Positions 47,248 to 62,299 of a stretch of DNA of 64,000 nucleotides are shown piece by piece. Source of the stretch: an uncultured Pseudomonadota bacterium (GTDB lineage: Bacteria; Pseudomonadota; Alphaproteobacteria; RF32; CAG-239). The position numbers and the translations under genes are program-made. How positions within the stretch are numbered: the stretch's first letter is position 1; every line of letters starts with the position of its first letter. A model generated the notes under the pieces. It made no database searches. It saw only the letters and a list, made by a program, of their open reading frames with translations, and was not told where the DNA came from. The DNA lies in NCBI GenBank assembly GCA_949297185.1, contig CASFRM010000006.1:16374-80373 (forward strand). The letters run 5' to 3'.

Positions 47248-49329
47248 ATGAAAAAAAGCAGACAAAACATACTAAAAATAGCCTTTGCAGTATTGCTATT
47301 TAGCATTACGATACCGACATTTGCGTCTGCTCAAACTTTTGAAGCTCAATCCGCCGCCGAGTTTGCCAAAGGCCACGGAGGAATGGAATATCTTGAGATT
47401 CTTGATAAAAGCTCTGGCTCGCGCAAAATAATTTGCGGAGACAACGATACAGTTTGTGATGGCAATACGCAAGTTTGCTTGAGGTGCAGACACATCGCTT
47501 CAAAAAAAGAATTTGGAAAAGCTTGGGAAACATACAGAAAAGAAGAAGATTGGTCCAGATGTGTTTCTAAACAAGACGTTGCTGTTGATGATTTATATAC
47601 TGTTTGGCCGGAATGTACACCTTTCAATACCTCTGTGGAGAGTTTTTTTGGGACGGTAATAGATACGGATCAGCAATTTCTTGTGATAGAACCGAATGGT
47701 TTTTTGTCAGAAAACATGCACAAGGAATTAGGGATAACATGGAGTAAAGAAAAACACCCCTTTACTGACAGTCAAGGCAGAAGTTATAACTTGATAATGT
47801 CAGGAGATACTTCTATTGCCTATGGTGGCGGTTCTTTCTCTGGCTGTGAAGTTTTGCCTGTTAAGCTCTATAATATGCAAAAATGTTTTTTCTGCCCGCT
47901 GACTGCGGTTGTTTTCGGAACTTCCAATAATGTGACTATCCATTCTTTTGACACATTTGCAGCCCCGTTTGCTACCATAGTAGGTCTTCTTTTTGCTCTA
48001 TGGCTTGCCTTGCATGCGCTAAAACAAGTTTTCCCGATGACCAAACAAGATGCTCCAAAATTCCTGTCAGCTATCGTCAAGCAAGGTTTTAAGGTCGCGC
48101 TGGCAATTCTACTTCTCACGCATTCTTCCGATTTGTTTCGCTATTTCATAATTCCTGTTTTGGATGGCGGATTACAAATGGGACAGCAAATAATATCAGC
48201 AAAATTGCCTGATGACACCAAGGCAGCAGAGCCTATTACCACCACCACAATGCAATATTTTAATCTCAGAACCGGAGGAAGTGATGAGGCTCCGCGAACA
48301 TTGTATAGCGATATAGAATATTATCTGAGATCTGTTCAATATCAGCTCTCCTATATGCAAGCAATCGGAACCTCGTTATTTTGCGTCGGCAGCAAGGAAG
48401 CTATTGCAATAGATGCAGAAAAGATCGTTTCAGGGCTGAGAATGGTAGTTCTGGGGGCAATATTTGTTATTTTCGGATTTTTGCTGACAATAACCTTTGC
48501 TTTTTACTTTATGGACGCGTTGTTGCAGCTTGCTATCATCGGAGCGATGATGCCGCTGATGATTGCCGGATGGCCTTTTCGAGCAACCGGACAGTATGCT
48601 TCAACGGGATTTAAAATGCTCTTAAACACATTTTTTGTAATGTTCTTTACCGGATTTGTAGTTAGTGTATGTTTTGAAATCCTTAACCAGTCGATGGTAT
48701 TTGCTCAACGATCAAAAGAAGATTCAACGGCATTGCAAGATGCAATGGGGTATGGCTTTGACAAAATAGCCGCCGCTATTAATGAGCAAAATATTGAGGC
48801 GTTATACCAGGCTACGGAAATTGGCGGCATAGGATTTTTATTGATAATATTCTCTTGTCTTATGGGATATAAATTTGTTTCACAAGTAAATCCGTTAGCC
48901 AACAAACTGGCTTCAGGCGGAGCCTTTGCCGGCATGACCGGAAAAATAGGAACAATGGCCGCTTCCACAGTCAAAGGAATGGCAAATAAAGTCTCCCAGC
49001 CATTGGGTAATGCTGTTGCCAATAAATACCACGATGCCGGTGGTTTGGTTGGAATTGTCGGCGGTGCGGCATCAGAAGTTAGTGGCGGAGTAAAGGCTAT
49101 TGGCAGTGGCGTTCAAAAGGTCGGAAGCGGTATAAGTAAAGCCGGAAAAACTTTGGTCGCCGGAGGCGGCGTCATAGGCAAGGCCGCCGGTGCAGCCATG
49201 ATGGGGGTAGGTGCAGCTACCCAAGCTGCCGGAGCTGCAACCAAAGCCGCAGGAACAGCTACTCAAAAGGTGAGCGATGTAGCCAAAGAAGGAGCCAAAA
49301 AAGTCCATAGTGCATACGAAAGAAAGTAG
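47248..49329 (+). CDS. virB6: TrbL/VirB6-like polytopic T4SS membrane protein
   Basis: Signal peptide, a Cys-rich periplasmic N-domain, at least 6 TM helices and a G/A/K-rich C-terminal tail, as in TrbL/VirB6 and the enlarged rickettsial VirB6 paralogs. No sequence search was done. Confidence 0.5.
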   Translation: MKKSRQNILKIAFAVLLFSITIPTFASAQTFEAQSAAEFAKGHGGMEYLEILDKSSGSRKIICGDNDTVCDGNTQVCLRCRHIASKKEFGKAWETYRKEEDWSRCVSKQDVAVDDLYTVWPECTPFNTSVESFFGTVIDTDQQFLVIEPNGFLSENMHKELGITWSKEKHPFTDSQGRSYNLIMSGDTSIAYGGGSFSGCEVLPVKLYNMQKCFFCPLTAVVFGTSNNVTIHSFDTFAAPFATIVGLLFALWLALHALKQVFPMTKQDAPKFLSAIVKQGFKVALAILLLTHSSDLFRYFIIPVLDGGLQMGQQIISAKLPDDTKAAEPITTTTMQYFNLRTGGSDEAPRTLYSDIEYYLRSVQYQLSYMQAIGTSLFCVGSKEAIAIDAEKIVSGLRMVVLGAIFVIFGFLLTITFAFYFMDALLQLAIIGAMMPLMIAGWPFRATGQYASTGFKMLLNTFFVMFFTGFVVSVCFEILNQSMVFAQRSKEDSTALQDAMGYGFDKIAAAINEQNIEALYQATEIGGIGFLLIIFSCLMGYKFVSQVNPLANKLASGGAFAGMTGKIGTMAASTVKGMANKVSQPLGNAVANKYHDAGGLVGIVGGAASEVSGGVKAIGSGVQKVGSGISKAGKTLVAGGGVIGKAAGAAMMGVGAATQAAGAATKAAGTATQKVSDVAKEGAKKVHSAYERK

Positions 49330-53940: not shown

Positions 53941-54282
53941 ATGCAATTTATAAAGAACAATATTTGGACCTTGTGTCTTGTAGTTTTGGCAGGTTTGTTT
54001 GCCTTTACTGGTGATGCAGCCGCTCAGGGTTCAGTAATGGAACTTGGTAAACAAAAAGCATTGAATGTGTTTACCTCAGTTAAAACAATTATTTTCATCG
54101 TTGGTGGTTTTGGTCTTGTAGGTATTGCCTTTGCCGCTATTTTCGGAAAAGTAAACTGGAAATGGTTTGCAGCTTTGGCTGTAGGTTTGGCAATTTTGGC
54201 TGCTGCCGGATCAATTGTTAACTACGCAACCGGTGATAGCATTAGTGGCTTTAACGATACCTTCTCGTCAGCTACTAACTAA
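53941..54282 (+). CDS. virB2: VirB2/TrbC-like T4SS pilin (paralog 1, canonical size)
   Basis: 113 aa. Signal peptide (…GDAAA/QG) and two hydrophobic helices separated by GKVNWKW. AAAGGAG RBS. Lies upstream of virB3-virB4. Confidence 0.7.
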   Translation: MQFIKNNIWTLCLVVLAGLFAFTGDAAAQGSVMELGKQKALNVFTSVKTIIFIVGGFGLVGIAFAAIFGKVNWKWFAALAVGLAILAAAGSIVNYATGDSISGFNDTFSSATN

Positions 54283-54295
54283 GGTTTTAGGTCAA

Positions 54296-54334
54296 GGCTT
54301 CGAGGCTTATGCAAAAGCCTCGGGGCCTAAGGCC
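54296..54334 (+). other. Stem-loop directly after the pilin gene (no T-run; possible mRNA-stabilising or attenuating hairpin)
   Basis: cgaggctt-atgcaa-aagcctcg core (54301-54322) with an extended imperfect stem, plus a ggcctaaggcc palindrome. Confidence 0.35.
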
Positions 54335-54430
54335 TAAATAAAAGAAGGCTGGATTTATTTTTATACAAGTAACGGTGTGCAAAAACAAACTCAGTCAATA
54401 AAAGCGAACTAAGGCAAATAGGAGGATAAG

Positions 54431-55108
54431 ATGTATAAGTTAAAAGACATATTAAAAGTGCTTCTTATAGCCTTGTTTGTTTGTGTTTACAGCGCCGGAG
54501 ATGTTTACGCACAGACTGATATGTGCGGAGGCCCGTGTCCAGAAGGAAGTGTATGTACTAAAACAATGTCAAATGTAAATGGTGCAGACGAATGGAGATG
54601 CGTGACCAAAGCAAAACCGACAGGAGATGTTAATACGGAAGGCCAAGGAGGTGCGACACAAAATGCCAACTTCTGCGGTACTGACGGCGGAGCGTTTTCT
54701 CAACTTGTAACTACCGGAGTTCTGATTTTCAAAAGATTACGCGATTTGATATATGTTGTAGCCGGTTTTGGTATTATAGCGGTAGCTGTCGGAGGATTCT
54801 TTGGTAACCTCAACTGGAAGTGGCTGGGCGCGATAATCATTTCGCTGGTGGTTATAGCTTCTGCCGGAGAAATTGTTGCCATGATAACAGGATGTAGCAG
54901 TTTTGATGGAGGTCTCATTACCAACACACTAACACATCCCACCGGCATGAGTACACAAGAATTTAATGATACCTATACCGAAAGAGTAAAGTTAAACAAG
55001 ACCATAGACTGGAACGACAGTATGGATGTTTATACTCCACCTAACAGTTCTAGTGCTGCCGAAGCAGCCATTGAAGAGACTGGTTTAGAAGAAAACACTG
55101 CAGAATAA
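54431..55108 (+). CDS. VirB2-like pilin paralog 2 with a Cys-rich N-domain and C-terminal extension
   Basis: 225 aa. Signal peptide and CGGPCPEGSVCTK...WRCV. The core LIYVVAGFGIIAVAVGGFFGNLNWKWLGAIIISLVVIASAGEIV aligns with paralog 1. Confidence 0.6.
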   Translation: MYKLKDILKVLLIALFVCVYSAGDVYAQTDMCGGPCPEGSVCTKTMSNVNGADEWRCVTKAKPTGDVNTEGQGGATQNANFCGTDGGAFSQLVTTGVLIFKRLRDLIYVVAGFGIIAVAVGGFFGNLNWKWLGAIIISLVVIASAGEIVAMITGCSSFDGGLITNTLTHPTGMSTQEFNDTYTERVKLNKTIDWNDSMDVYTPPNSSSAAEAAIEETGLEENTAE

Positions 55109-55143: not shown

Positions 55144-58100
55144 ATGATGAAATTATCTAAAATAAGCAAGGTAATAATGCTGATTGGCATAATTATGGCC
55201 TTCTCAACTAGTAATGTTTTTGCAGCCAGTGACTGCGAAAAGCAATGTAGCGAAACATACAAAGGTAATCGCTCGCAAATATCTGCTTGTAAAGCTCAGT
55301 GTAAAGCCGACGAGGCTAACCAAAAAGCAACAAATACACAGGCGGCACAAGATACTGCGATAAATGATAGATGGAAGCAAGCGCAGTCAACAAAAGAAAT
55401 GACGCAGAACACCTATACAGATGCTTCGGTAAAATATAATACCTGTGTCGCAACTAAAGGTGCAAATGCTTGTCAGGCTGAAAAGAAAGCAATGGAAGAT
55501 GCCAAGTTTGACCTTGACGCTGCCAATGAATCTTATAACGATGCTCAAAAAGATGCTTCAAAGGCCTACTGGGAAAATAAAAAAATGCAAGAGAAGGCTG
55601 ATGCGGCAGCCGCCAAGGCTGAGCAGAAGCAGTTAAAAGCCGATCAAAAAGCATTAAAAGATGCCGAAAAAGCTCTCAAAAAATGTGAAAAAGAAAACGG
55701 AGAAGGTAATTGCGCTGCAGAAGAATCCGCTGTTGCCGAGGCTCAGCAAAAGGTTGATTCTCATAATCAAGCCGTTGAAGGTACATCAGGAGAAGATGCG
55801 CAACTAAACGCATTACAAAATGAATTTACCAGCGCTGGTTCAGATTATGGTAAACAATCTGATGCTCTCAACTCGATGAAAAATTATAGCAATGAACTTA
55901 CGGTCGCAGCCGCAGCCGCCTCTGCGGAATGTACAAGATACAGTGCAATGACATCTCAAGATGCCAGAGCAAAGGCAAAAGATGCCTGTGCTCAGGCAGA
56001 GGCATTAAAAGCTCAAGCAGAAGCCGCTCAATCAGCATATGAAGAAGCAAAAAATGCTATGGCCGACAGACCGTTATCAGAAAGTGTATTGGCTGCTCAG
56101 GGTCGTGTAAAACAAGGAACAAAAAACGACAATAGCTACGGAATAGTAGACATAGATGAAGCTCGCCAAATATCAATGAGTGGCAGCGATGCAAACAGTT
56201 TTGCCGGCTATAGGTCTGAAAAATTTAATTATGACTCCGGAGGAGATGTTCTAGAAAAGATAACTCGTCGTGCAGCCAGAGTTGTCGTTGGTCTCAAACC
56301 CTTAGTGTATATATTTGCCGGTTTTGGCTTAATCGGCTTTGCGTGGGCTGCAATTTTCAATAAATTAAGCTGGAAGTGGTTTGCTAATATTGCAATGGGT
56401 TTGTTCTTGGTCGCTAATATGGGACGACTGATTGAATATATGGTTGCCGGAGATGGTGGTACCCACTATTATATAGGGGTGTGGGACGATGGCGCGACAC
56501 CAACCGGAACTAAAACCGATGGCGCTAACCAACTAGCCAATGCCTTCAAAGATAGCTATTATGTATATGGTGATAATGTAGATAGACAAACAGGTTTAAG
56601 AATGTTTGAGCTTAGCGCGCAGGGTACAGATACGGAAAAAGTCGCAGAAGAATTCACGGCATCTGCAGCAGGGTTCTGCCAAGGTACCAGCGGTTCTGGT
56701 TGGGCTAACTTCACCAGCTGTGTCAAAGATGTTATTTCAACGGCTAAAAAAGCTGCCGATACTGTAAAGACAACGGTTGCCGTTGCTCAAGATATGAAGG
56801 CTCGTGTCGATACCGTAAAAGATACTGTTTCCAATATCACGCAGGCTGCTAAAAATATGAAAGGGGCAAGCTTAACTGAAATTGTAACCAATACAGGTAT
56901 AATTTTAAGCAATGTTAACACAGCTGTCTCTACCACCACTGGAGCTATTGGTTCGGTTACCAATGCTATGTCTACAATATCTAACAACGTCCAAGATATG
57001 GGCAAGAGTGTAGAACAACAAAAAGAATTGCAAGACCGCCGCAACAGCGGAGAAGCCACCAATGCCTTTGACGCTATGTTGAAAGGTCAGGAGTGGGATG
57101 CTTCAACCGGAGGTGTAGAAAATGTTGATGGCGAATGGGCCGGCCAGAGTAATTTCATAACAACGACCAATGACTTAGCTTCAGATATCAGCGACAAGTC
57201 ATCACAACTTAACGGTTTAGCTCAAGACGGTTTGATGCAGGTCGGTGTGGTTACCAACGCTATAGAAAGTGCACCAATCCTTCCGGGAGGTAAGAGCCTG
57301 TATGATAAATATGCAGATAATAAAGAGCAAAAGGTACAACAAAATCGTGCTCAAGCACAGGCTGCCGCCGATCAAGCTTATCGCGAAAGCAATGCCGGCA
57401 AAAATGAGGATTATCGAGCCAAGAGCGAACAAGTAAGCAATATGTATAACGATATGCAGAAGCAAGAACAAGAAGTTAAGCAGTTGCAAAATCAAAAAGC
57501 CAGTGCCGAAAAGGCAGTTGAGCAGAATTGTAACGGCGATAACGATACCTCTCCTTTGTGTCAAGCTTCGCGCAATAGCTTGAAGGCAGTTGAGGATTCT
57601 CTACAGGCCAAAGAAGAGCAATTAAATAAGACCAAAGATGAGTATGATGAGGCCAAGAGGTCAATGGAACACGCCTATAACGAGGCTCTAGATAGTAACA
57701 TATCTAAGGCTGAGGAAGATTACGAAAAGGCAGCTAAGGATGCAGATGATATTTGTAGCAAAAATCCTGGAAGTTCTGAATGCGCAAATGCTCGTCAAAA
57801 AGCTCTTGATGCCGCCAATACTCTGACTTCTTATGTAAATGAGAAAGAAAATGCAACCGGCGATAGTCGCTATGAGACCTCAGAGGATACGGCCAATAAG
57901 CTGGTAAGCAATGAAGATGAACAAAAACTCAAAGAAATGGAAAAACAACTTGCCTATGAGCAAGAGCAAGAAGCCAATAGATTGAAACACGAGGCCGAGA
58001 TTGCTAACAGCCAGTATGAGCAAGCAATGTCTGAAGCAGACGCACTCTACTCTGCAGTTAATAGCCAAGAAGAACAAGTAAAACAACTTGAACAAGAAGC

Positions 58101-59418
58101 TAAGAATAAACAACAAAATGCAGATAAGGCTTGTGCAACAGATCCAAATAGCTCGCTTTGTGCAACAGCCAGAGAGGCTTCGTCTGCCGCCAATGCTGCT
58201 CTTAATAATAAAAAAGACCAGCTCGAGCAGACCAAAAATGATTATGATGCAGCCAAAAACAAAGCCGAAGACGCATATCAAAATGCTCTGACTGCCAACC
58301 AAAATCAGGCTCAAAGAGATTTGGAAAACGCTAAAGAAAAATCTGAAAATGCCAAAGCAACTCTTGATGAGGTTAATAGCAAGATTGATGGTGCCAAAGA
58401 TGATATGAATACGGCCAAAGATGAGTACAATCAAGCCATGAAAGACGCTCAGGCTGCGCAAGATGCATACAATCAAGCTGTTTCAAGCGGTGCAAATCAG
58501 TCCGAAATCAATAGATTGAAGCGCGAATACGAAAATAAGCTTGCTGAGATGAGTGACAAAAAGGACAATTACGAAGAAAAGAATAAAGAATACAATGATT
58601 TGTCCAAACAAAAAGAACAAGCTCAACGCGATTATAACAGCGCGTACTCAGAGGCTAACGATGCTGCCGGCAGACTGGATTCTTATACCAATGAGGATAT
58701 CAACCAGACCGGTGATAGTCGTTTAACCTCAAGTGAAGATGTTGCAAATCAAATATTGGTTAACCAATATGAGAGCGAAACTAATCCCAATGCAGTAGCT
58801 CAGGCTTCTAAAAACAGCTATGTCGAGCAAAAGAACAAAACCGATGTCGCCGAATATACCAAAAATGAGAAAGAAGCTGCAGCTAAGAATGCCTATAACG
58901 AGTATCAAAAGGCGCTACAACGTTGTCAACAAAGCGGAAATCCGAGTGATTGTCAGCTGGCAGACCGCCTGTCAAGCCAGTACAATCTTGCAGCCAGCGA
59001 AGCCGAGGCCGCTAAGCAAGAGTATGAAAGCTTAAACAATGAACTTCAAGGTTATGAAAGCGACTACAAACGCAAAGCTCTGGAGTCAGAAAAATATAAA
59101 CAGCGCGAATATCAGGCAGATATGCAAGAAGCATCCTCGGATATCAATAAATATGAGCGGTTGGTATCTCAACAACGCCGAGTAGTAGATGATGCTGCGC
59201 TTAGATACACTCAAGCCAAGAATAGCTTGCAAGAAGGCGATGAAGCCGGCTTAAAACTAGCAGCTCAGCTCTACGACGAATACAAAGAAGCCAAAGCTTT
59301 GTATGATGACTATCAGAGCAAGTTAAATCAAGCCAGAAATAGGCTGAGTACAGCTCAAAGCAATTATGATAAATCAGTAGCGGAAGCCAGAAGACTTGAA
59401 AAAGAACTAAACGGCTAA
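55144..59418 (+). CDS. Giant (1424 aa) coiled-coil protein with an embedded VirB2-like two-helix core
   Basis: Signal peptide. The core at 56281-56450 (LVYIFAGFGLIGFAWAAIFNKLSWKWFANIAMGLFLVANMGRLIEY) aligns with both upstream pilin paralogs. It is flanked by a ~380-aa N-terminal and a ~970-aa C-terminal A/E/K/Q-rich coiled coil with recurrent C-x8-9-C loops. Confidence 0.85.
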   Translation: MMKLSKISKVIMLIGIIMAFSTSNVFAASDCEKQCSETYKGNRSQISACKAQCKADEANQKATNTQAAQDTAINDRWKQAQSTKEMTQNTYTDASVKYNTCVATKGANACQAEKKAMEDAKFDLDAANESYNDAQKDASKAYWENKKMQEKADAAAAKAEQKQLKADQKALKDAEKALKKCEKENGEGNCAAEESAVAEAQQKVDSHNQAVEGTSGEDAQLNALQNEFTSAGSDYGKQSDALNSMKNYSNELTVAAAAASAECTRYSAMTSQDARAKAKDACAQAEALKAQAEAAQSAYEEAKNAMADRPLSESVLAAQGRVKQGTKNDNSYGIVDIDEARQISMSGSDANSFAGYRSEKFNYDSGGDVLEKITRRAARVVVGLKPLVYIFAGFGLIGFAWAAIFNKLSWKWFANIAMGLFLVANMGRLIEYMVAGDGGTHYYIGVWDDGATPTGTKTDGANQLANAFKDSYYVYGDNVDRQTGLRMFELSAQGTDTEKVAEEFTASAAGFCQGTSGSGWANFTSCVKDVISTAKKAADTVKTTVAVAQDMKARVDTVKDTVSNITQAAKNMKGASLTEIVTNTGIILSNVNTAVSTTTGAIGSVTNAMSTISNNVQDMGKSVEQQKELQDRRNSGEATNAFDAMLKGQEWDASTGGVENVDGEWAGQSNFITTTNDLASDISDKSSQLNGLAQDGLMQVGVVTNAIESAPILPGGKSLYDKYADNKEQKVQQNRAQAQAAADQAYRESNAGKNEDYRAKSEQVSNMYNDMQKQEQEVKQLQNQKASAEKAVEQNCNGDNDTSPLCQASRNSLKAVEDSLQAKEEQLNKTKDEYDEAKRSMEHAYNEALDSNISKAEEDYEKAAKDADDICSKNPGSSECANARQKALDAANTLTSYVNEKENATGDSRYETSEDTANKLVSNEDEQKLKEMEKQLAYEQEQEANRLKHEAEIANSQYEQAMSEADALYSAVNSQEEQVKQLEQEAKNKQQNADKACATDPNSSLCATAREASSAANAALNNKKDQLEQTKNDYDAAKNKAEDAYQNALTANQNQAQRDLENAKEKSENAKATLDEVNSKIDGAKDDMNTAKDEYNQAMKDAQAAQDAYNQAVSSGANQSEINRLKREYENKLAEMSDKKDNYEEKNKEYNDLSKQKEQAQRDYNSAYSEANDAAGRLDSYTNEDINQTGDSRLTSSEDVANQILVNQYESETNPNAVAQASKNSYVEQKNKTDVAEYTKNEKEAAAKNAYNEYQKALQRCQQSGNPSDCQLADRLSSQYNLAASEAEAAKQEYESLNNELQGYESDYKRKALESEKYKQREYQADMQEASSDINKYERLVSQQRRVVDDAALRYTQAKNSLQEGDEAGLKLAAQLYDEYKEAKALYDDYQSKLNQARNRLSTAQSNYDKSVAEARRLEKELNG

Positions 59419-59440: not shown

Positions 59441-59491
59441 AAAACGGAAGTATGCTCTAACATAAAGTTGTGTAATACTTCCGTTTTTTTT
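59441..59491 (+). terminator. Rho-independent terminator between the giant gene and virB3
   Basis: 12-bp stem aaaacggaagta / tacttccgtttt with a 23-nt loop, followed by a T-run. Confidence 0.6.
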
Positions 59492-59589
59492 GAGCTTCAA
59501 ATAGGTGTAGGATAAAATTATTTGTATTGTTGCGAAAAAATAACGGATGTTTTATCATAACCTTGGCTGTAGTCTGAGAGATAATTGAT

Positions 59590-59880
59590 ATGCGAGAAGT
59601 AATATTAAAGGCAGTTGCTAATCCTCCCAAGATTCTGTGGGGTCCGTTTTTGCCGGTTCTGCTCAATCTCGGTGTGCAATTTCCGATAATGTTTATGTTT
59701 ATGGGGACATTTAATGTCAACCCGATATGGTTTATGGCATCCTTGGTTTTAGGGCATGTCATCAGTGTTTTTATGGGAATAAAAGAACCTCACATATCAG
59801 CCATGATACAGGCTTATGGTCAAAGCGCTAAAAAAACAACCAACCTCTATAAAGTAAAGGGGAATAAATTTGCACCCTGA
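59590..59880 (+). CDS. virB3: T4SS protein VirB3-like
   Basis: 96 aa with two TM helices. N-terminal LKAVANPPKILWGPFLPVLLNLGV resembles the VirB3 motif. Overlaps virB4 by 11 nt. Confidence 0.7.
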   Translation: MREVILKAVANPPKILWGPFLPVLLNLGVQFPIMFMFMGTFNVNPIWFMASLVLGHVISVFMGIKEPHISAMIQAYGQSAKKTTNLYKVKGNKFAP

Positions 59881-62299
59881 TTATGATTTTTTCTCGATCT
59901 TCGTCGAAGGTCTGTCAAGTTTTGAAATATTGGTGGCCGTTATAGGTTTTATTTCGGCAGCGGCATTTGCCGGCTTTTGGGCAACCAAATTCGGTCATTT
60001 GGTCTTGCCTCATCCGAGAGAGTCCCGCGTTTCGGACTTTATGCCGTTTGAAAAGCTCCTTTCTGACGGAATGACGATTCGTTGCTATAATGGTTCTTTG
60101 GCGCGTGTATTTAGGGTCACCGGAGCCGATTTGGCCTTTGCTACGGAAGAAAAGGTAGCCTCTATGCTGGAGGCCAGAAAGTCGTGGATAGACGGAATGT
60201 CTGACCTGCAAGTTACCTGTCGAGTAATTACCATAAGAGAAAAAGTACCTCTGGAAGAAAATGTTAGCAATTTTAACAACCCGTTGCTCGAACAGATATC
60301 TGAGGTTTGGCAAGAGAATATAAACAGAGTATTCTTCAATACCCACTACATAGTACTTTCGGTAGCAGACCGCGATGAAAATCTAAAAGACCTAAACTAT
60401 GCCTCGCAGTCTTTGGTTGCCACCTTAAACGACTATGGCGTAAAGCCCTTGATTGAGGAAGAGGGAAGTTCTGCTGATGACAGTCCGTTTATAGTCTACT
60501 CAAAACTATGTTCTCCGGTATCAAGACCTAAGCCCAAAGTTAGAGGTGCAGTTGGAGCGCAGCTCAATCAGCTGCTAACTGCTGACCATATCCACTTCAC
60601 GGGCGAAGATGGTATCATCAAATTTTTCTCCGGAGAAAAAGAGTTGTATGAAGTTGTTATGGGAATACGTTCTTCCGGAGACTATATGGACGAGGCGATG
60701 GTTTCTTCGCTTCTTGCAATAGATTGCGAACTGGTTTTGTTGCACAATATTCGCCCGATATTTAAGCCGCAAGCTCGCGCGTTATTGTTACAACAACAAA
60801 GAATGGCCGCCATGACCAGCTTTTCCGGCGATGTTATAGACCAATACAGTGAAGTCCTTTCCGCTATTGAAGAAAGCGATAGCGACCACCAAGCTCTTAC
60901 CGAATATGCTATGGCAATAATGCTAAGAGGTGAAAGCAAAGAAGAAATAGATAATGCCGAGAGCGAAGTTCAAAGAATATGTCGTTTGTTCAGTGTAACT
61001 CCGGTTAGGGAAGGCTGGGTCGCTCAAGCAACATTCTTCAATCAGTTTCCAACATATGAAACTCTACCCAGAACATATCGCTATTTATCAAGGGTTGTCG
61101 CGACGGCCGTTTCGTTTGACAAGCCTTCGGAAGGTTTCTCTAAGTCTGACTGGGGACCGGGAGCAATTACCATATTTCGCACCACCTCGGGTTCTGCGTA
61201 TCGTTTTCAGTTCCATGTTTCATCGGAAGATTCTGCAGTCGCTCACTGTTGCATTATCGGACCGACCGGTCAAGGTAAAACCACATTACTTACCTTTTTG
61301 GCCGGACAAGCTATGCGGCACGCCGATTTGAAAGTGTTCTTTTTTGACCGCCACCGAGGTGCCGAAATATTTACTCGTGCAGTTAAAGGCGCTTATGTAG
61401 GCTTTGAAGGTGATGAAAAAAATGTTTCTTTGAACCCGTTTGCATGTGCCAATACTCCCAATAACCGAGCTTTTCTGCGTCGCTGGATGCGTGCGATTAC
61501 GCTTGTTGATGATGCTGTTTCAGAAAAAGAAATTGCTCGTGCAGTAACTACAGCTTTTGATTACTTGCGTCCTGAAGAAAGAATTATGAGTAATCTGTAT
61601 AAAAGCTGCTTTTCTCCGACCGGCAATATGCGCCGAGAACTGTTTAAGTGGGTAAACCCTGATCAGTACGGTAATATTTTCAACTCTCAGGATGATAGTT
61701 TGGATCTAAAAAGCAAGCGCTTTATGGCATTTGACTTTACTCATATATTTGAGGACGAAACTTTAGCTCCTGCCGTAATTAGTTACATCATGCACCGAAT
61801 ACAGTCCGAAACCGGAGACACAGGTGTTCCTTCGCTAATTATGATTGATGAAACAGCGCCGATGTTAAAACACCCGATGTTTAGAGACTATTTTGCCATT
61901 GGTTTGCAAGAAGGTCGTAAAAAACGCCAAGCCTATTTGTGCGCATTCCAGCAGCCCAATATTATCGATAAGCTTGGTGTTGGCGAGGTTATTCGTGGTC
62001 AATGCCAAACCGTAATCTTTTTCCGCAACCCTCAAGCCATGCCGGAAGACTATGTAAACTGGAACTTAACCGAGGCGGAAACAGACTTTATTTTTGGTAA
62101 AAGTTATCGTGATTTTCCATATGCAATCCTTTTGTCCAGACCGGCAACAGGTGAGTCAGTTATATTAGATGTCGATTTAAGCGGATTAGGTCCCTATCTC
62201 AAAATATACAATTCCGGAAGAAAGAATGTTTTGTTGGTAGAAGAACTGATAAAAGAATATGGTGAAGACAACTTTGTTACAAAATATTTAAATCTTTAG
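59870..62299 (+). CDS. virB4: T4SS ATPase VirB4 (CagE/TrbE family)
   Basis: 809 aa with a TTG start. Walker A GPTGQGKTT, Walker B LIMIDETAP and typical VirB4 length. Confidence 0.92.
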   Translation: MHPDYDFFSIFVEGLSSFEILVAVIGFISAAAFAGFWATKFGHLVLPHPRESRVSDFMPFEKLLSDGMTIRCYNGSLARVFRVTGADLAFATEEKVASMLEARKSWIDGMSDLQVTCRVITIREKVPLEENVSNFNNPLLEQISEVWQENINRVFFNTHYIVLSVADRDENLKDLNYASQSLVATLNDYGVKPLIEEEGSSADDSPFIVYSKLCSPVSRPKPKVRGAVGAQLNQLLTADHIHFTGEDGIIKFFSGEKELYEVVMGIRSSGDYMDEAMVSSLLAIDCELVLLHNIRPIFKPQARALLLQQQRMAAMTSFSGDVIDQYSEVLSAIEESDSDHQALTEYAMAIMLRGESKEEIDNAESEVQRICRLFSVTPVREGWVAQATFFNQFPTYETLPRTYRYLSRVVATAVSFDKPSEGFSKSDWGPGAITIFRTTSGSAYRFQFHVSSEDSAVAHCCIIGPTGQGKTTLLTFLAGQAMRHADLKVFFFDRHRGAEIFTRAVKGAYVGFEGDEKNVSLNPFACANTPNNRAFLRRWMRAITLVDDAVSEKEIARAVTTAFDYLRPEERIMSNLYKSCFSPTGNMRRELFKWVNPDQYGNIFNSQDDSLDLKSKRFMAFDFTHIFEDETLAPAVISYIMHRIQSETGDTGVPSLIMIDETAPMLKHPMFRDYFAIGLQEGRKKRQAYLCAFQQPNIIDKLGVGEVIRGQCQTVIFFRNPQAMPEDYVNWNLTEAETDFIFGKSYRDFPYAILLSRPATGESVILDVDLSGLGPYLKIYNSGRKNVLLVEELIKEYGEDNFVTKYLNL

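Follow-up and report, generated by a model that had tools for sequence, protein, structure and literature searches.

We describe three consecutive genes, here called P1, P2 and P3, in a 64,000-nucleotide stretch of DNA (the window; positions 16374-80373 of contig C6) from an uncultured alphaproteobacterium whose 1.51-Mb assembly has roughly 40% GC and is 94% complete. All three genes encode proteins with the two-helix hairpin of TrbC/VirB2, the pilin family of type IV secretion systems (T4SSs). Judged by its recurrence in related genomes, this trio of one plain and two decorated VirB2 paralogs is a real and conserved feature. What appears to be new here is a VirB2 hairpin that is kept together with added domains; that one system can have multiple VirB2 genes was already known. 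We consider it moderately probable that P1 is the major pilin, with P2 and P3 as display or tip subunits that are anchored by their VirB2 hairpin and present in low abundance. The genes are open reading frames (ORFs) on the + strand, each with a GGAG/AGGAGG ribosome-binding site, and lie in the window as follows.

53941-54282, + strand: P1, class A VirB2/TrbC pilin, 113 amino acids (aa); predicted signal peptide ends in DAAA, followed by Q; proposed major pilin
54286-54338, + strand: stem-loop directly 3' of P1, without a T-run; proposed mRNA 3' stabiliser or partial terminator
54431-55108, + strand: P2, class B decorated VirB2 paralog, 225 aa
54512-54673, + strand: P2 N-domain (aa 28-81), hypervariable, with four Cys spaced C-x3-C-x5-C-x14-C
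54674-54895, + strand: P2 pilin core (aa 82-155), i.e., C82, helix 89-121, NLNWKW loop, helix 129-153 and C155
54896-55105, + strand: P2 C-terminal tail (aa 156-225), conserved LITNTL..PT.MST.EFNDTYTE and then a variable acidic end
55144-59418, + strand: P3, the giant class C paralog of VirB2, 1424 aa; made up of a signal peptide, an N-arm (aa 28-369), the hairpin, a conserved domain and a C-arm (aa 701-1424)
56251-56451, + strand: P3 embedded pilin hairpin (aa 370-436)
56452-57243, + strand: P3 conserved post-hairpin domain (aa 437-700), helical and rich in T, S, N and G, with a Cys pair at 512/526
59441-59491, + strand: stem-loop and T8 run that resemble a terminator, at the end of the three-gene unit

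Homology of the three proteins to TrbC/VirB2 pilins

The curated cut-off of the Pfam profile for this family (PF04956, TrbC/VirB2) is 27.9 bits. P1 exceeded it, with 36.9 bits and, in a genome scan, 39.4 bits; P2 scored just below it (27.3 bits, E 4e-6) and P3 further below (15.9 bits, E 0.016, aa 383-424). These were the only three credible TrbC matches in the genome. Alignment of ortholog families by hhalign gave homology probabilities of 99.5% (E 2.5e-23) between class A, to which P1 belongs, and class C, that of P3, and 99.0% (E 7.9e-18) between class A and class B, that of P2. The TrbC profile also matched 42 of 67 class C members. By these profile alignments the P1, P2 and P3 cores are homologous and belong to the TrbC/VirB2 family. 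The original prediction had proposed that the 113-aa and 225-aa products share a two-helix VirB2-like core which recurs in the 1424-aa protein; the ORFs and the core alignment agree with this, and the family assignment is borne out by the P1 profile match, the hhalign results and the position of the trio just 5' of virB4. The motif given for the core held overall, except that P1 reads GGFG instead of AGFG and P3 reads F-N-K-L-SWKW; the form common to all three is GFG-x13-(N/S)WKW-(F/L)-x-A.

The individual scores of P2 and P3 below the Pfam cut-off would suit a reading of both as decaying or chance ORFs that carry a hydrophobic motif and have no function. Their conservation contradicts this, and we regard it as highly improbable: nearly all of ~75 loci retain intact frames, the ratio of nonsynonymous to synonymous substitution rates (dN/dS) of the hairpins is near 0.08, with about 90% conservation inside a class, and the hhalign E-values are 1e-18 to 1e-23.

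Each of the three proteins has a Sec-type signal peptide with an A-x-A type cleavage site, followed by two hydrophobic helices and a short basic loop between them. AlphaFold2 (AF2) models placed the helices at residues 89-121 and 129-153 of P2 and at positions 35-70 and 76-100 of a P3 fragment, where the predicted local distance difference test score (pLDDT) was 72-82. The inter-helix loop F-x-x-x-(N/S)WKW is found in every class of the window's genus, and class C proteins of more distant genera have SWKH or SFKH there. This retention of the loop within the genus suggests that the three hairpins share a partner or environment. When P1 and the class A, B and C profiles were compared with the sequences of solved structures, they matched no pilin and no VirB5, and only low-complexity helical matches were returned.

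Predicted cleavage would leave P1 with ~85 aa, within the usual pilin range of ~70-90 aa and consistent with the canonical size originally ascribed to it, and unprocessed mature P2 (~198 aa) and P3 (~1397 aa) lie outside this range. The trio resembles Agrobacterium VirB2, RP4 TrbC, R388 TrwL and pKM101 TraM in its signal peptide, two helices, basic loop and location near virB4, and P1 matches canonical VirB2/TrbC pilins both in size and in passing the profile cut-off. Unlike in them, the hairpin of P2 and P3 is flanked on both sides, with 70 to ~1,300 residues added. The usual position of a VirB2 gene, 5' of virB3-virB4, also fits the trio, VirB3 being assigned here by position only.

Age, size and decorations of the three classes

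The trio was complete in 23 of 24 genomes of the same genus, and a hidden Markov model scan across genera found the order A-B-C in ~75 of 80 related named loci. These loci come from metagenome-assembled genomes (MAGs) of gut Alphaproteobacteria, with record titles such as 'Proteobacteria bacterium CAG:495', 'Azospirillum sp. 51_20', 'Candidatus Scatocola faecigallinarum' and, in many cases, 'MAG: Alphaproteobacteria bacterium'; the source labels they contain name Hadza, sheep, roe and water deer samples, with chicken indicated by a species name. When 207 distinct hairpin cores were placed in a tree, the members of each class grouped in a clade of their own with no foreign members (support 0.80, 0.51 and 0.98), and hairpins were about 90% conserved within a class and about 40-50% identical between classes. 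On this phylogeny the trio consists of ancient paralogs that form three orthologous classes.

Class A proteins had 111-135 aa across all loci. Class B proteins had the canonical ~121 aa in distant genera and 150-310 aa in the window's genus. Class C proteins had ~340-400 aa in distant genera, with the hairpin directly after the signal peptide, 780-1100 aa in intermediate genera, and 985-2058 aa with arms on both sides in the window's genus. As read from this series of genera, the decorations have grown stepwise. The tandem paralogs of increasing size described in the original prediction are thus to be understood as three ancient orthologous classes, not as recent copies. P2 had 406 homologs, all derived from metagenomes; public records name these proteins 'hypothetical' or, for the short class B forms, 'TrbC/VirB2 family', and the giant proteins have no functional name in public databases.

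Several VirB2 genes per system are known from the Bartonella Trw system (trwL copies), from Anaplasma, Ehrlichia and Wolbachia, and from Patescibacteria (2-11 pilins); these reports describe the tandem copies as sequence-variable ordinary pilin genes, and the passages covered mention no added domains. The rvh system of Rickettsiales is likewise described as lacking VirB5 and as having a duplicated VirB8 and several VirB2 genes; in the present genome, too, VirB8 is duplicated and no VirB5 was detected. Unlike the tandem VirB2 arrays, the trio has exactly three ancient, individually conserved classes with a graded architecture (113 to 1424 aa) in a fixed order. A variable array of the Trw/Anaplasmataceae type was rejected as a description of the trio, since the three monophyletic classes are conserved across genera.

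The P2 N-domain comprises 54 aa, in which AF2 placed a beta-hairpin (40-45/54-59) with a pLDDT of about 70. Its four Cys (C32, C36, C42 and C57) and the roughly 70-aa tail are both present as first described. Compared with the sister species, the P2 core was 91% identical (dN/dS 0.08), the N-domain 46% (dN/dS 0.46) and the tail 53% (dN/dS 0.37). Among 62 homologs the N-domain was free in both length and sequence, and its Cys module was at times duplicated or absent. Many orthologs of the same genus lack the tail and end at ITDTLK.

A further pair of Cys in class B flanks the helices, 47 residues before and 26 residues after WKW (-47/+26). In the 62 homologs C82 was invariant and C155 was present in at least 90%; in class B proteins from whole genomes, both equivalents were present in 23 of 27 and neither in 4 of 27, and one was never found alone. 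From these sequences we infer that the pair forms a disulfide clamp joining the ends of the hairpin. The genome has two DsbA-like genes (C14:32405-32911 and C4:3341-3802). The pilins TrbC (RP4) and TrhA (R27) are made cyclic by a peptide bond after C-terminal trimming, by a TraF-type peptidase; the ends would be tied covalently in both cases, in class B by a side-chain disulfide that leaves the termini free. Paired Cys were also seen in many other envelope proteins of this genome.

P3 contains 20 Cys, which make up 10 short-range pairs, all outside the hairpin; eight of these are C-x3-C or C-x8-9-C loops. Its arms are helical and rich in A, E, K and Q. BLAST matches from 59-64 of 65 orthologs span the block from ~aa 330 to 700, which includes the hairpin and the domain that follows it and can be aligned between genera. 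Profile searches against PDB and Foldseek searches with the post-hairpin domain gave no family or fold match, only generic helical bundles. The sister species has a P3 of 1853 aa, 83% identical to the 1424-aa protein over the aligned part, and self-BLAST of P3 at E 1e-3 found no internal repeats. The post-hairpin domain was also considered as a fused VirB5, for which no support was found; PF07996 matched none of 67 class C fragments and nothing in the genome.

The additions could be cleaved pro-regions, in which case the locus would give three alternative mature pilins of ordinary size, like the variable VirB2 arrays. The C-terminal residues that TrbC and TrhA lose before cyclisation provide a precedent, there is a difference of about 50-60% between the hairpins of the three classes, and class B has the canonical size of 121 aa in distant genera. 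We nevertheless find this improbable. A 260-aa domain conserved across genera and 10 loops of paired Cys are unlike a discarded propeptide, the helices do not contain the class B clamp Cys, which would tie the N-flank to the C-flank, and strong purifying selection acts on the three classes, which are old groups of orthologs and not a variable array. Furthermore, no TraF-like peptidase was seen at the locus, a genome-wide search for one not having been made.

Two genomes of the same genus each have an additional class B gene, located on a different contig from the trio and encoding proteins of 410 aa (L044 2662-3894, - strand, G024) and 384 aa (L045 2502-3656, - strand, G021). Two contigs with the trio (L085 and L119) belong to MAGs that bear the labels Lactobacillus sp. 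and Bacteroidaceae, probably through binning errors.

A sample of 200 other Alphaproteobacteria mostly had VirB2 frames of 100-180 aa, with extended or multi-hairpin forms in a few small-genome lineages, so that by this sampling the principle of a decorated VirB2 may be wider than the lineage studied here. Four such proteins were seen. One has 304 aa with three tandem VirB2 hairpins and lies beside five single pilin genes (L130 1522-2436, - strand, G198); one has 255 aa with one clear and one weak hairpin match (L129 1635-2402, G156); one is a 428-aa VirB2 with an acidic repeat tail (L128 1955-3241, G102); and one is a 442-aa VirB2 with a Gly/Pro-rich N-extension (L127 2498-3826, - strand, G056).

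Expression signals and proposed roles of the three proteins

Compared with the sister species, P1 showed 100% aa identity, VirB4 94%, housekeeping proteins 88-97% and P2 63%. The number of synonymous substitutions per site (dS) was 0.14 for P1 and 0.9-1.4 for P2, and the proportion of synonymous differences (pS) was lower in class A than in classes B and C in 8 of 8 unsaturated species pairs. At equal GC content of third codon positions, the pooled effective number of codons of the hairpins was 40.7 for class A, 50.9 for class B and 46.0 for class C. Gly was encoded as GGT and Ile as ATA in 73% and 3% of cases in class A, closely matching RpoC plus GroEL (71% and 1%); classes B and C were near the genome average (36% and 30%). 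On a scale like the codon adaptation index (CAI), P1 scored 0.607, the 97th percentile of the genome, and P2 (0.368) and P3 (0.488) were near or below the genome median.

The intergenic sequence after P1 folds into a 22-pair stem with a z-score of -4.5. As had been noted at first, it lacks a T-run, the sequence 3' of the stem being A-rich instead of T-rich. A hairpin with z < -2 followed class A in 95% and class B in 10% of 79 related loci, and class C in 89% of 65 loci. The hairpins 3' of class A had a median z of -3.9 and sequences unrelated between species; they were found in 75 of 76 unique loci, 25% with a T-run and 75% with none. A dispersed REP-type repeat was ruled out for the P1 stem-loop, which occurs once in the genome. 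The suggestion that this stem-loop may be a device for differential expression gains comparative support from the contrast between the first and second genes, and also from the codon bias of highly expressed genes, which among the trio is seen in P1 alone. We infer that the three genes form one unit whose first hairpin stabilises the P1 message or partly terminates it, which is how genes for a major fimbrial subunit are classically organised. Together with the T8 stem-loop after P3, two promoter-like sites at 59490-59558, just 5' of the gene at the VirB3 position, suggest that the pilin trio may be a transcription unit apart from virB3-virB11.

Because P1 combines 100% identity, low dS, biased codons and a strong 3' stem-loop, four independent signals, P1 and its class A orthologs appear to be the abundant major pilin. 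In P2 and P3 the pilin hairpin would serve as the module for insertion into the inner membrane and for handling by the T4SS. The signal peptide and two-helix topology would place the additions on the periplasmic side, i.e., the outer side of the assembled pilus. Structures of conjugative pili show the inter-helix loop turned to the lumen and the termini near enough to each other to be joined (PMC11722321); therefore the additions would project from the filament surface. P2 would display its small disulfide-rich N-domain and acidic tail, with the clamp tying the hairpin ends and both termini left free, a side-chain analogue of the cyclisation of TrbC and TrhA. P3 would display two long helical arms with disulfide loops together with the conserved 260-aa domain. 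The stem-loop after P1 and codon usage would set the subunit ratio, so that P2 and P3 would be made in small amounts and join the filament as minor or tip subunits with fast-evolving surfaces.

The known tip protein of T4SS pili is VirB5, which is not derived from VirB2. A search of the genome with the VirB5 profile PF07996 found nothing, and P2 and P3 would replace VirB5 in the role it fills in other systems. T4SS pili grow from the base, according to a T4SS review (PMC12857230), which is why P2 and P3 would most plausibly stand at the start of the filament and hence at its tip. A bolder reading, which we hold rather less likely than not, is a heteropolymeric T4SS filament without VirB5, in which class C, and perhaps class B, would nucleate assembly and end at the tip.

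Alternatively, P2 and P3 might stay in the envelope, their hairpins anchored in the inner membrane at the VirB3/VirB4/VirB6 platform and their arms serving as a scaffold, stalk or sheath of the machine in the periplasm, comparable to the enlargement of the Helicobacter Cag system by CagY and further add-ons. Both the great size and the helical character of the arms fit this, the locus is rich in unassigned secreted coiled-coil proteins, and the conserved 260-aa domain beside the hairpin resembles a fixed interaction module more than a variable tip; in addition, the review states that VirB2 is needed for substrate transfer even without a pilus (PMC12857230). However, the arms and the P2 N-domain diverge fast and change length, which is more typical of exposed surfaces, and within the window's genus the hairpin loop is as in the major pilin. 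We judge this alternative, the main rival, rather unlikely.

Several points weigh against the assignment of P2 and P3 as display or tip subunits of a filament built from P1. The organism is uncultured and the proposal is drawn from sequence. Some 1,300 extra residues would have to be extracted from the membrane and pass the outer-membrane channel. VirB5 sequences diverge in many systems, and one could be among the unassigned secreted proteins encoded after virB4. The reference set for codon bias consisted of two genes, RpoC and GroEL. Neither DsbB nor VKOR was found in the 94% complete genome, which leaves the oxidation pathway incomplete. Finally, Foldseek searches with both AF2 models returned nothing at E <= 0.001, the models being of low confidence outside the hairpins (pLDDT 64 and 55).

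Designs of the proposed kind exist in other pili. FimH and PapG of chaperone-usher pili, GspK of the type II pseudopilus, and PilY1/PilC with the minor pilins of type IV pili are two-domain tip adhesins or bulky minor pilins. As in our proposal, they join a pilin-type module to a large binding domain and are present in low amounts beside the major subunit, but their folds and machines are unrelated to T4SS pilins. In Helicobacter, CagY is a VirB10 homolog with a large repeat region, one of the add-ons that enlarge the Cag system. By general description it resembles P3 in having a core T4SS domain, long helical repeats, regularly spaced Cys and a length that varies between strains, but its core domain is VirB10, not VirB2.

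VirB2 is usually treated as a small, single-purpose pilin. We found no description of decorated VirB2 in the part of the literature covered, and the T4SS review (PMC12857230) mentions an extended VirB6 and not an extended VirB2. Published work, including a 2025 in situ study of Wolbachia, states as open questions why there are several VirB2 genes and how systems without VirB5 start and tip their pili. Differentiated paralogs, one plain and apparently abundant and two decorated and apparently rare, offer a concrete and testable division of labour. If the bolder reading of a heteropolymeric filament is true, T4SS pili would have in P3, and perhaps in P2, their first known subunits of the type 'pilin domain plus adhesin domain', and the class B clamp would reach the closed-ring topology of cyclic pilins by an independent second route. 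If, furthermore, the extended forms found elsewhere follow it, it would be a general, overlooked design with a bearing on pilus assembly in rvh-type systems that lack VirB5. Human and animal guts commonly harbour this lineage, whose fast-evolving decorations are candidate contact surfaces for cells of the host or neighbouring cells.

Neighbouring genes and an inverted repeat

The trio lies just 5' of virB4, and VirB8 (two copies), VirB9, VirB10 and VirB11 are encoded further downstream. The neighbouring features of the window are the following.

54347-54396, no strand assigned: imperfect inverted repeat GGCTGGATTTATTTTTA ... GCAAAAACAAACTCAGTC, 5' of the P2 ribosome-binding site, identified by its folding and a conserved arm
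59590-59880, + strand: 96-aa membrane protein at the VirB3 position, overlapping the virB4 start; placed by position and size only
59870-62299, + strand: VirB4 ATPase (TIGR00929, E 3e-115; PF03135)

A Pfam search with the 96-aa protein gave no match. VirB4 is followed by six secreted, mostly coiled-coil proteins without a family match, and then by VirB8 in two copies, a SPOR-containing VirB9, a pair of giant repeat proteins and VirB11. The SPOR (peptidoglycan-binding) domain is at the C-terminus of the VirB9/CagX-like protein (L006 11363-12937), with a score at the Pfam cut-off. Both giants, of 1101 and >1249 aa (L006 12945-16250 and 16253-19999, downstream of the window), consist of beta-flower/RHS-like repeats (PF21785, E 6e-64), and the second ends in a TrbI/VirB10-like domain and would be a very large VirB10. 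Two VirD4-like genes are both on other contigs.

A weak VirB6/TrbL-like gene lies 4.6 kb upstream of the trio (47248-49329; Pfam E 0.0019). Its 693-aa product is 58% identical to that of the sister species, next to housekeeping proteins at 88-97%, and is another fast-evolving envelope component.

The inverted repeat between the P1 hairpin and the P2 ribosome-binding site has arms of roughly 17 nucleotides, of the type TTGAGTTTATTTTTACA ... TGCAAAAACAAAYTCAA, and could be an operator or a structured leader. The sequence of its arm is conserved in at least 10 related loci, and where the + strand has two A.C mismatches the - strand would form G.U pairs.

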